Sequence record: NC_001422.1
Source: Escherichia phage phiX174
Length of the DNA: 5,386 nucleotides
Direction: 5' to 3' (one strand)
The position numbers and the translations under genes were made by a program. Every line of letters starts with the position of its first letter. The stretch's first letter is position 1. Positions 1,001 to 3,917 of this stretch are shown in pieces. The notes below the pieces were generated by a model. The model was not told where the DNA came from. It did not search any database and worked only from the letters and a program-made list of their open reading frames with translations.

Positions 1001-2284
1001 ATGTCTAATATTCAAACTGGCGCCGAGCGTATGCCGCATGACCTTTCCCATCTTGGCTTCCTTGCTGGTCAGATTGGTCGTCTTATTACCATTTCAACTA
1101 CTCCGGTTATCGCTGGCGACTCCTTCGAGATGGACGCCGTTGGCGCTCTCCGTCTTTCTCCATTGCGTCGTGGCCTTGCTATTGACTCTACTGTAGACAT
1201 TTTTACTTTTTATGTCCCTCATCGTCACGTTTATGGTGAACAGTGGATTAAGTTCATGAAGGATGGTGTTAATGCCACTCCTCTCCCGACTGTTAACACT
1301 ACTGGTTATATTGACCATGCCGCTTTTCTTGGCACGATTAACCCTGATACCAATAAAATCCCTAAGCATTTGTTTCAGGGTTATTTGAATATCTATAACA
1401 ACTATTTTAAAGCGCCGTGGATGCCTGACCGTACCGAGGCTAACCCTAATGAGCTTAATCAAGATGATGCTCGTTATGGTTTCCGTTGCTGCCATCTCAA
1501 AAACATTTGGACTGCTCCGCTTCCTCCTGAGACTGAGCTTTCTCGCCAAATGACGACTTCTACCACATCTATTGACATTATGGGTCTGCAAGCTGCTTAT
1601 GCTAATTTGCATACTGACCAAGAACGTGATTACTTCATGCAGCGTTACCATGATGTTATTTCTTCATTTGGAGGTAAAACCTCTTATGACGCTGACAACC
1701 GTCCTTTACTTGTCATGCGCTCTAATCTCTGGGCATCTGGCTATGATGTTGATGGAACTGACCAAACGTCGTTAGGCCAGTTTTCTGGTCGTGTTCAACA
1801 GACCTATAAACATTCTGTGCCGCGTTTCTTTGTTCCTGAGCATGGCACTATGTTTACTCTTGCGCTTGTTCGTTTTCCGCCTACTGCGACTAAAGAGATT
1901 CAGTACCTTAACGCTAAAGGTGCTTTGACTTATACCGATATTGCTGGCGACCCTGTTTTGTATGGCAACTTGCCGCCGCGTGAAATTTCTATGAAGGATG
2001 TTTTCCGTTCTGGTGATTCGTCTAAGAAGTTTAAGATTGCTGAGGGTCAGTGGTATCGTTATGCGCCTTCGTATGTTTCTCCTGCTTATCACCTTCTTGA
2101 AGGCTTCCCATTCATTCAGGAACCGCCTTCTGGTGATTTGCAAGAACGCGTACTTATTCGCCACCATGATTATGACCAGTGTTTCCAGTCCGTTCAGTTG
2201 TTGCAGTGGAATAGTCAGGTTAAATTTAATGTGACCGTTTATCGCAATCTGCCGACCACTCGCGATTCAATCATGACTTCGTGA
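1001..2284 (+). CDS. F: Major capsid protein F
   Basis: ORF track 1001..2284, 427 aa, MSNIQTGAERMPHDLSHLGFLAGQIGRLITIS... recognised as phiX174 gpF. GAGG at 990-993 is a Shine-Dalgarno. Stop TGA 2282-2284. Confidence 0.97.
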   Translation: MSNIQTGAERMPHDLSHLGFLAGQIGRLITISTTPVIAGDSFEMDAVGALRLSPLRRGLAIDSTVDIFTFYVPHRHVYGEQWIKFMKDGVNATPLPTVNTTGYIDHAAFLGTINPDTNKIPKHLFQGYLNIYNNYFKAPWMPDRTEANPNELNQDDARYGFRCCHLKNIWTAPLPPETELSRQMTTSTTSIDIMGLQAAYANLHTDQERDYFMQRYHDVISSFGGKTSYDADNRPLLVMRSNLWASGYDVDGTDQTSLGQFSGRVQQTYKHSVPRFFVPEHGTMFTLALVRFPPTATKEIQYLNAKGALTYTDIAGDPVLYGNLPPREISMKDVFRSGDSSKKFKIAEGQWYRYAPSYVSPAYHLLEGFPFIQEPPSGDLQERVLIRHHDYDQCFQSVQLLQWNSQVKFNVTVYRNLPTTRDSIMTS

Positions 2285-2300
2285 TAAAAGATTGAGTGTG

Positions 2301-2360
2301 AGGTTATAACGCCGAAGCGGTAAAAATTTTAATTTTTGCCGCTGAGGGGTTGACCAAGCG
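2301..2360 (+). other. F-G intergenic structured region: long A/T-rich hairpin (2317-2342); site of the primosome assembly (PriA / n-prime recognition) signal used for complementary-strand synthesis; may also act as terminator TF
   Basis: Inverted repeat GCGGTAAAAATT (2317-2328) / TT / AATTTTTGCCGC (2331-2342) with a single T opposite G (a G-U wobble pair if folded as RNA). From memory the phiX174 PriA (factor Y) recognition hairpin maps to the F-G intergenic region. Exact boundaries are approximate. Confidence 0.6.
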
Positions 2361-2394
2361 AAGCGCGGTAGGTTTTCTGCTTAGGAGTTTAATC

Positions 2395-2922
2395 ATGTTT
2401 CAGACTTTTATTTCTCGCCATAATTCAAACTTTTTTTCTGATAAGCTGGTTCTCACTTCTGTTACTCCAGCTTCTTCGGCACCTGTTTTACAGACACCTA
2501 AAGCTACATCGTCAACGTTATATTTTGATAGTTTGACGGTTAATGCTGGTAATGGTGGTTTTCTTCATTGCATTCAGATGGATACATCTGTCAACGCCGC
2601 TAATCAGGTTGTTTCTGTTGGTGCTGATATTGCTTTTGATGCCGACCCTAAATTTTTTGCCTGTTTGGTTCGCTTTGAGTCTTCTTCGGTTCCGACTACC
2701 CTCCCGACTGCCTATGATGTTTATCCTTTGAATGGTCGCCATGATGGTGGTTATTATACCGTCAAGGACTGTGTGACTATTGACGTCCTTCCCCGTACGC
2801 CGGGCAATAACGTTTATGTTGGTTTCATGGTTTGGTCTAACTTTACCGCTACTAAATGCCGCGGATTGGTTTCGCTGAATCAGGTTATTAAAGAGATTAT
2901 TTGTCTCCAGCCACTTAAGTGA
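2395..2922 (+). CDS. G: Major spike protein G
   Basis: ORF track 2350..2922; canonical start is the Met at 2395 ([23 protein letters not shown]...), preceded by AGGAG at 2383-2387. 175 aa. Stop TGA 2920-2922. Confidence 0.95.
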
Positions 2923-2930
2923 GGTGATTT

Positions 2931-3917
2931 ATGTTTGGTGCTATTGCTGGCGGTATTGCTTCTGCTCTTGCTGGTGGCGCCATGTCTAAATTGTTTGGAG
3001 GCGGTCAAAAAGCCGCCTCCGGTGGCATTCAAGGTGATGTGCTTGCTACCGATAACAATACTGTAGGCATGGGTGATGCTGGTATTAAATCTGCCATTCA
3101 AGGCTCTAATGTTCCTAACCCTGATGAGGCCGCCCCTAGTTTTGTTTCTGGTGCTATGGCTAAAGCTGGTAAAGGACTTCTTGAAGGTACGTTGCAGGCT
3201 GGCACTTCTGCCGTTTCTGATAAGTTGCTTGATTTGGTTGGACTTGGTGGCAAGTCTGCCGCTGATAAAGGAAAGGATACTCGTGATTATCTTGCTGCTG
3301 CATTTCCTGAGCTTAATGCTTGGGAGCGTGCTGGTGCTGATGCTTCCTCTGCTGGTATGGTTGACGCCGGATTTGAGAATCAAAAAGAGCTTACTAAAAT
3401 GCAACTGGACAATCAGAAAGAGATTGCCGAGATGCAAAATGAGACTCAAAAAGAGATTGCTGGCATTCAGTCGGCGACTTCACGCCAGAATACGAAAGAC
3501 CAGGTATATGCACAAAATGAGATGCTTGCTTATCAACAGAAGGAGTCTACTGCTCGCGTTGCGTCTATTATGGAAAACACCAATCTTTCCAAGCAACAGC
3601 AGGTTTCCGAGATTATGCGCCAAATGCTTACTCAAGCTCAAACGGCTGGTCAGTATTTTACCAATGACCAAATCAAAGAAATGACTCGCAAGGTTAGTGC
3701 TGAGGTTGACTTAGTTCATCAGCAAACGCAGAATCAGCGGTATGGCTCTTCTCATATTGGCGCTACTGCAAAGGATATTTCTAATGTCGTCACTGATGCT
3801 GCTTCTGGTGTGGTTGATATTTTTCATGGTATTGATAAAGCTGTTGCCGATACTTGGAACAATTTCTGGAAAGACGGTAAAGCTGATGGTATTGGCTCTA
3901 ATTTGTCTAGGAAATAA
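2931..3917 (+). CDS. H: Minor spike / DNA pilot protein H
   Basis: ORF track 2931..3917, 328 aa. GAGGTGA at 2920-2926 is a Shine-Dalgarno overlapping the G stop. The N-terminus is Gly/Ala-rich ([25 protein letters not shown]...) and the middle is Gln/Glu-rich, as in phiX174 gpH. Confidence 0.96.

Follow-up and report, generated by a model that had tools for sequence, protein, structure and literature searches.

The stretch analysed here (the window) is the complete genome of Escherichia phage phiX174 (NC_001422.1; 5,386 nt), which is 99.9% identical over all 5386 nt to GU385905 and to other phiX174 records and shares their numbering. All genes of phiX174 read in the + sense, and the + strand is also the one encapsidated in the virion. 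The last nucleotide of gene F is 2284 and the first of gene G is 2395, leaving an F-G spacer of 110 nt (2285-2394) that is, as an earlier note on the sequence had it, the longest non-coding stretch of the genome; the remaining spacers, J-F, G-H and H-A, measure 36, 8 and 63 nt. The spacer holds the following features:

2285..2307, + strand: 5' third of the spacer, unconserved and dispensable (laboratory deletions; missing in relatives)
2305..2311, + strand: conserved foot TATAACG, in which AAC (2308-2310) pairs with GTT (2349-2351) and G2311 stands opposite G2348
2308..2351, + strand: hairpin I, 44 nt, supported by its predicted fold, genome-wide rank, covariation and published assignment
2317..2342, + strand: 12/12 inverted repeat, the core of hairpin I, read from the sequence
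2348..2372, + strand: invariant 3' flank GGTTGACCAAGCGAAGCGCGGTAGG, with the highest sequence conservation of the element
2353..2369, + strand: putative hairpin II, in which ACC (2353-2355) pairs with GGT (2367-2369) and which encloses a mini-hairpin
2358..2364, + strand: mini-hairpin motif GCGAAGC, of the class GCGNAGC/GCGNNAGC
2373..2376, + strand: TTTT run, likely the U-tract of the weak terminator TF, found in the phiX174 clade only
2383..2387, + strand: AGGAG, Shine-Dalgarno sequence for gene G, whose ATG lies at 2395 (read from the sequence)

All relatives carry a purine-rich AAGGA or AGGAG at the place corresponding to the last of these features. A search of Rfam (E up to 10) gave no match in the F-G spacer. 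Two mechanical open reading frames run across it, namely one that lengthens G in frame by 15 codons from a TTG start (2350-2922, +) and one of 30 aa on the opposite strand (2304-2396, -); neither shows any sign of conservation, and the region differs by insertions and deletions among relatives.

The inverted repeat at 2317-2342 was found as the earlier note had placed it, with arms GCGGTAAAAATT (2317-2328) and AATTTTTGCCGC (2331-2342) and a single T2321.G2338 wobble. Since just 2 nt lie between the arms, their innermost pair cannot form, and the predicted core stem joins 2316-2327 with 2332-2343 around the 4-nt loop TTTA (2328-2331). The core is embedded in a more extensive, imperfect inverted repeat, which pairs 2308-2328 with 2331-2351 (21-nt arms, 81% complementary) and gives a 44-nt hairpin, in which G2314/A2315 stand opposite A2345/G2344; GCCGAAGCGG (2311-2320), previously described as a separate, smaller GC element, turned out to belong to the 5' arm of this hairpin. 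The 44 nt found here agree with the original footprint paper, which reportedly described a protected fragment of 55 nt with a 44-nt hairpin inside it.

Folded as single-stranded DNA, the 44-mer reaches -13.1 kcal/mol (z = -4.9; 0/200 shuffles as stable) and the spacer as a whole z = -3.7 (again 0/200), so that the folding check proposed in the earlier note returned strong predicted secondary structure rather than none. When all 5386 sliding windows of the circular genome were folded at 50 nt and at 70 nt, 2303-2352 ranked first among the former (-13.6, compared with a mean of -3.3 and an sd of 2.1) and 2306-2375 first among the latter; hairpin I is thus predicted to be the most stable local single-stranded fold of the genome. 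The second most stable one (2979-3028, -12.3 kcal/mol, GGAGGCGGTCAAAAAGCCGCCTCC) lies within gene H. Hairpin I folds much better on the + strand (-13.1 kcal/mol) than on the - strand (-8.3 kcal/mol), because G.T wobbles at several pairs become A.C mismatches on the opposite strand, and this difference argues against a cruciform in duplex DNA. Two properties of a primosome assembly site (PAS) are hence present: an intrastrand hairpin that is stable in silico (z = -4.9, first-ranking window) and a location on the strand that is single-stranded in vivo, where this hairpin is the stronger.

DNA alignment of the spacer itself was possible only within the phiX174 clade, and the matches of G4-like and alpha3-like phages stop at the end of F. 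A homologous spacer was nevertheless recovered from a second set of coliphages whose coding flanks are just 55-69% identical to those of phiX174 (Lilleput, ID2, ID204, FL68, ID18, WA14, EMCL318, Salmonella phage PJNS002 and two metagenome contigs). The hairpins of this set fall into four types, across which the foot AAC(G) (2308-2311), the apex AAATTTTAATTT and the 3' flank (2348-2371, GGTTGA[C/A]CAAGCG[-/C][A/T]AGCGCG[G/T]TAG) are invariant or nearly so, while the mid-stem sequence differs in every type yet keeps its complementarity without a shift in register; at one apex pair, A-T, C-G and T-A are all found. Among eight distinct phage sequences 97.9% of the cells are paired, compared with 31-51% when the partners are slid, and the sole unpaired cells are phiX174's own G2314/A2315 and A2345/G2344. 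Ten pairs are altered on both sides, giving a covariation score of 0.408 as against at most 0.065 for slid partners and exceeded in 0/500 shuffles. Judged by these alignments, four phage lineages have remade the stem of hairpin I through compensatory changes, and the conservation across phiX174-like phages that the earlier note had asked for extends to pairing as well as to sequence. With plasmid sites included (see below), 95.1% of the cells in twelve sites are paired and 19/24 pairs are altered on both sides, with a score of 0.686 as against at most 0.169 for slid partners; this alignment was fitted to the model and leans towards structure. The AAC/GTT pairing of the foot is invariant in all twelve sites.

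The earlier note could not place the functional boundaries, and the comparison now sets them at approximately 2305-2372. Laboratory-evolved phiX174 lines lack 2288-2307 (AF299303; 20 nt) or 2291-2305 (AF299306/7/8; 15 nt), both deletions ending at the foot of hairpin I; the 5' third of the spacer is missing in Lilleput, ID18, ID2 and PJNS002-type phages; and the local BLAST alignment of PJNS002 with phiX174 covers exactly 2308-2372. From these limits we define the functional block as the foot TATAACG, hairpin I and the 3' flank with hairpin II. We also considered as a determinant the AAGCGG hexamer in the 5' arm (2315-2320), a proposed n'-site consensus, and rejected it since this copy is not conserved in relatives. 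A metagenome scan with the flank motif returned two true relatives and 11 further, chance matches, nine of which are soil-bacterial copies of one locus and two are others. The soil locus (nine contigs) follows closely behind a tRNA gene and is conserved; GGTTGAACAAGCGGAAGCGCG lies within it, and a small, very basic open reading frame apparently starts there. The locus is unrelated to the phage element, and the copy scored (L018) reaches 11 bits and fails the covariance model described below.

The GC-rich sequence that the earlier note had seen downstream of the hairpin is indeed there, and to this we add that 2348-2372 is a second module that has likewise been conserved, the element being bipartite and not a single A/T-rich hairpin. 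All but three positions of the 3' flank are alike across the four phage hairpin types, and the flank is identical in pIGMS31-type plasmids and nearly identical in IncX3, IncFII-like and ColE2-like plasmids and in pCTU2. The invariant flank, GGTTGAnCAAGCGAAGCGCGnTAG, can be folded into the small hairpin II (2353-2369) around GCGAAGC. In its outer stem (2353-2355 with 2367-2369) C2354:G2368 is replaced by A:T in other phages, the outer A:T pair is replaced by G:C in plasmids, and altogether three of the five pairs covary. A nearest-neighbour model that includes no mini-hairpin bonus does not favour this helix (z = -0.08); since energies alone speak weakly for it, the putative hairpin II rests on the comparison, that is, on covariation at three pairs, and on the mini-hairpin literature.

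According to a 2026 review (PMC13037366), GCGNAGC/GCGNNAGC sequences form extraordinarily stable DNA mini-hairpins, which occur in the primase-type origins of G4 (GCGAAAGC) and St-1/alpha3 (GCGTTAGC), bind SSB poorly and, as synthetic oligonucleotides, show extraordinary thermal and nuclease stability. GCGAAGC at 2358-2364 matches the motif of this class, and natural variation in phiX-type spacers is confined to its N positions (GCGTAGC in WA4, GCGCAAGC in the Lilleput type). Hairpin II overlaps a shorter hairpin (2353-2373) that a 2026 saturation-mutagenesis preprint (10.64898/2026.07.25.740675) places upstream of a poly-U tract and reports to hold 16 detrimental mutations. The register implied there (2353-2355 with 2371-2373) fits the comparative data less well than 2353-2355 with 2367-2369, as judged by eye from alignment columns 52, 67 and 71, the formal count having been made for the inner register only.

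Homologous sites are found in plasmids. In a BLAST search with 2300-2380, pIGMS31-type MOBV plasmids matched at 84-89% identity over 2305-2372 (E down to 3e-11), and over 1,400 additional records, the majority of them from Escherichia, Klebsiella, Enterobacter, Salmonella and Citrobacter, matched the flank at 80-90%. One pIGMS31-type copy (L153) has the identical foot TATAACG, of which pIGMS31 (L154) retains the AACG core; the stem of this type represents a fifth compensated form, in which the T.G wobble has stayed in place. The same architecture occurs next to rep in Erwinia pEB102, in an IncFII-like Salmonella plasmid between repA and the gene of a regulator, and in Cronobacter pCTU2, a ColE2-like colicin plasmid and IncX3 plasmids. 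The IncX3 plasmid pIncX-SHV carries two opposed PAS-like sites, 1461-1529 (+) and 2766-2834 (-), which lie ~1.3 kb apart and flank thermonuclease and TrbM genes; the second has CCGCAGG for GCGAAGC, a compensatory change of the closing pair that keeps the G-N-A loop.

A covariance model built from seven phage sequences alone recognised nine plasmid sites, all full-length (31-81 bits; E 1e-16 to 4e-5), and a single site in phiX174 (2305-2372; 91 bits), while chance motif matches scored at most 18.5 bits. A viral scan with the A/T apex and GGTTGA was unspecific, yielding 120 chance loci, and the model gave no match at E <= 0.1 in the 100 of these that were searched (956 kb of unrelated contigs). 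In a scan of genomes phiX174 spike-in contigs dominated, and the matches in long chromosomal contigs failed the covariance model. As side products of these searches we came across complete phiX174 genomes entered as 'plasmids' of Vibrio, Cellulomonas and Edwardsiella, 5.4-kb phiX174 contigs in genome assemblies from some hundred unrelated species, a phiX174 genome inside the 24.9-kb record 'Mycolicibacterium phage J1' and another named 'Protaetiibacter phage SSC1'; these misnamed records, among them NZ_AP024892 and MZ417522, are almost certainly sequencing spike-in contamination.

With regard to class, the block resembles other members in sequence and structure (nine plasmid sites; 84-89% BLAST identity) in a comparison that left out the ColE1/pBR322 sites. 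In the pHW126 family of plasmids the corresponding element is called 'ssi'; it is dispensable in pIGRK, where its loss leads to higher copy number, multimerisation and lower stability (PMC6854812). The architecture and motifs of the PriA-dependent, phiX174-like ssi class (Nomura et al., 1991, cited in PMC6854812), which includes the pHW126/pIGRK ssi, match those of phiX174: an AAC...GTT foot, a long hairpin with an A/T-rich apex, and then G-RN-CAAGCGAAGCGCG-NNAG. The plasmid copies differ in that they lie within regions for rep or transfer functions, in some cases as an opposed pair (IncX3), and have neither the T-run nor a gene-G ribosome site downstream. By sequence the plasmid sites appear to be clear homologues of the phiX174 block and are candidate PriA-dependent ssi.

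We regard it as very probable that ~2305-2372 on the viral (+) strand is the phiX174 complementary-strand origin, i.e., the primosome assembly site (n'-pas). The hairpin is real and the interpretation given in the earlier note is supported, although what it identifies is already known, the classical phiX174 primosome assembly site overlapping TF. That the F-G spacer holds the PriA (n-prime) hairpin for complementary-strand priming is in agreement with published assignments (PMC9865509 and the preprint). PMC9865509, citing Shlomai and Kornberg (1980), has the primosome recognise a hairpin that precedes gene G; on phiX174 ssDNA the PAS bound by PriA is a hairpin resembling an abandoned fork (PMC8246471, PMC5778457); and the preprint (10.64898/2026.07.25.740675) labels the hairpin as TF overlapping ori(-) and the PriA binding site, with a 5' stem at nt 2308-2326, so that the published coordinates fall here and not elsewhere in the genome. 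Neither of the outcomes that the earlier note had held against its own reading was thus encountered, since the single-stranded structure is strong and is conserved with covariation. With respect to the n' (PriA) site of phiX174 (Shlomai and Kornberg, 1980; Arai and Kornberg, 1981), the genome, spacer and hairpin are the same and there is no difference in kind. The assignment of the block to PriA, with binding of the protein and activation of its ATPase, is drawn from this literature, and priming with PriA, PriB, DnaT, DnaC/DnaB and DnaG is established for phiX174 ssDNA as a whole (PMC5778457).

How the bipartite block might serve such an origin can be outlined as follows. Upon infection the circular single-stranded DNA is coated by SSB, with hairpins I and II, which fold in silico, presumably surviving under the coat. 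As established in the literature, PriA recognises the folded, fork-like site, PriB and DnaT join, DnaC loads DnaB, and DnaG primes, after which Pol III makes the minus strand. We only infer that the two helices, one nucleotide (G2352) apart, mimic an abandoned fork together with the single-stranded DNA on the 5' side. Hairpin I would then represent the parental duplex of the fork, hairpin II on the 3' side a double-stranded 'leading arm', and the unconserved 5' flank (2285-2307), which may merely be single-stranded DNA beside hairpin I, the single-stranded 'lagging arm', where DnaB would be loaded before travelling through the hairpin in the 5' to 3' direction. Since its sequence is free to vary, hairpin I would supply shape, and the invariant foot and 3' flank would supply sequence-specific or special-structure contacts. 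The fork-mimic reading fits the dispensable 5' flank, the variable stem of hairpin I and the invariant foot and 3' module.

Of the other explanations, the one that survives best, which we nonetheless consider improbable, holds that the conserved structure acts primarily as RNA, as the rho-independent terminator TF and/or as a 3' stabiliser of F-containing mRNAs, the DNA role being incidental. The literature does place TF in this spacer, as the earlier note had stated: it is counted among the four canonical intrinsic terminators, all of them weak, and reduces transcript abundance, passing 0.59-0.80 of the transcriptional current or, by another measure, terminating at about 40-60% efficiency. 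The RNA fold is strong too (-34.7 kcal/mol, z = -3.4), the preprint (10.64898/2026.07.25.740675) labels hairpin I as TF and sets a poly-U tract after 2353-2373, and, since mRNA and viral DNA are the same strand, covariation cannot separate an RNA role from a DNA role. However, hairpin I is followed by no T-run and was left unflagged by a consensus promoter/terminator scan, which called no terminator in the spacer. What intrinsic-terminator features there are consist of the weak hairpin II (z = -0.08) followed by TTTT at 2373-2376, the sole run of four or more T residues 3' of hairpin II, and this run is missing in all other PAS-type phages that keep the block; termination therefore cannot explain the conservation. 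Moreover, the plasmid homologues lie beside rep genes and in both orientations and are described as single-strand initiation sites, and the invariant motif is of a kind reported for DNA mini-hairpins where priming takes place.

Given this, a role at the DNA level is favoured as the reason for conservation. TF overlaps the same nucleotides, but it forms no canonical stem-plus-U-tract at hairpin I, its U-run coming after hairpin II; it is best seen as a weak secondary function, gained in phiX174 by a U-run placed behind hairpin II, whereby the + sense sequence present in mRNA, together with TTTT 2373-2376, would act as a weak intrinsic terminator. The evolved lines AF299306-8 bear on this point, as they carry T2375A, which falls in the U-run and breaks TTTT, as well as T2382C, which adjoins the gene-G Shine-Dalgarno sequence. 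These changes suggest selection for less termination or for more G/H expression, and the first of them also counts in favour of an RNA role.

One published result sits awkwardly with the comparative data. In the preprint (10.64898/2026.07.25.740675), 39 substitutions in the 5' arm raise fitness, whereas the loop and the 3' arm either tolerate change without effect or are sensitive to it; fitness gains in the 5' arm (2308-2326) only conflict with the natural, compensated pairing of both arms (2332-2351 being the partner). Possibly, transitions in the A/G-rich 5' arm lead to tolerated G.T wobbles and a mild weakening of the stem, and those in the T/G-rich 3' arm to A.C mismatches, which would be severe.

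A second alternative, that the spacer is a G4-type origin at which DnaG recognises SSB-coated DNA directly and without PriA, we consider highly implausible. The G4-type oric (G4, St-1, alpha3) likewise serves to start minus-strand synthesis on viral DNA coated with SSB, in G4 at the same map position in the F-G spacer, and phiX174 shares a GCG(N)NAGC mini-hairpin motif with the G4, St-1 and alpha3 origins; we saw both the G4 and the St-1/alpha3 motif in NC2 and Lilleven. Nonetheless, sequence and fold are unrelated, the G4 type having three G+C-rich hairpins recognised by DnaG and not via PriA. The NC2 spacer (136 nt, three G+C hairpins) is unalignable with that of phiX174 (39-46% identity), no DNA alignment with the three-hairpin G4/St-1/alpha3 origin extends past the end of F, and the covariance model found no match in G4-type or alpha3-type loci. 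The literature, furthermore, treats phiX174 as the PriA-dependent paradigm (PMC5778457, PMC8246471), with the classic requirement for PriA, PriB and DnaT, which refutes this alternative. The two kinds of origin do replace one another in nature: the Gequatrovirus phages WA14 and NC2 share 80% identity where F ends but only 41% in the spacer, which in WA14 is a phiX-type PAS of 92 nt and in NC2 a G4-type primase origin of 136 nt. Complementary-strand origins thus behave as exchangeable modules between otherwise similar phages.

Finally, A/T-rich palindromes are common and single substitutions in non-coding DNA are mostly tolerated (19% detrimental in the preprint, 10.64898/2026.07.25.740675), but a functionless chance palindrome in relaxed non-coding DNA is refuted by covariation and conservation, with pairing restored by compensatory changes in plasmids as well as in four lineages of phages, the top-ranking fold of the genome, a flank kept invariant where coding flanks are 55-69% identical and laboratory deletions that leave the hairpin intact, and we give it practically no credence.

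Returning to the PriA site, a more far-reaching proposal, which we put forward tentatively and regard as possible rather than probable, is that the recognition determinant is not the long hairpin but the foot and the 3' module (GTTGRNCAAGCGAAGCGCG and the GNA mini-hairpin), that the two helices together mimic a stalled fork, and that the ~68-nt block is a horizontally exchanged 'PriA-loading cassette', spread through the Bullavirinae and well over a thousand enterobacterial plasmids and interchangeable with the G4-type primase cassette. The phiX174 PriA site is the historical paradigm behind the discovery of PriA and of the replication-restart primosome, and confirming the element for this reason changes nothing. 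What our analysis adds, namely the boundaries, the bipartite architecture with its mini-hairpin, the covariation in four lineages, the interchange with the G4 type and the homology to plasmid ssi, is modest and was partly anticipated in older work. It does provide a compact definition (~68 nt, two helices, an invariant motif) with which plasmids and ssDNA phages may be searched for lagging-strand and complementary-strand origins, and the refinements predict nucleotides important for PriA loading, which can be compared with the saturation-mutagenesis data. More broadly, ssDNA phages and plasmids would seem to draw on a common pool of origin cassettes.

Two further phages differ in the layout of this region. 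In the alpha3-like Lilleven the F-G spacer (1033-1065) is only 33 nt long and holds a GGGCCTTCGGGCCC hairpin, the long structured spacer, which contains GCGTTAGC, being located between G and H instead (1630-1764). In Lilleen (MK629526, a linear record of 5342 nt) the F and G coding sequences are annotated as overlapping by 113 nt; its spacer is seemingly missing or rearranged, which may be an artefact of assembly or annotation.
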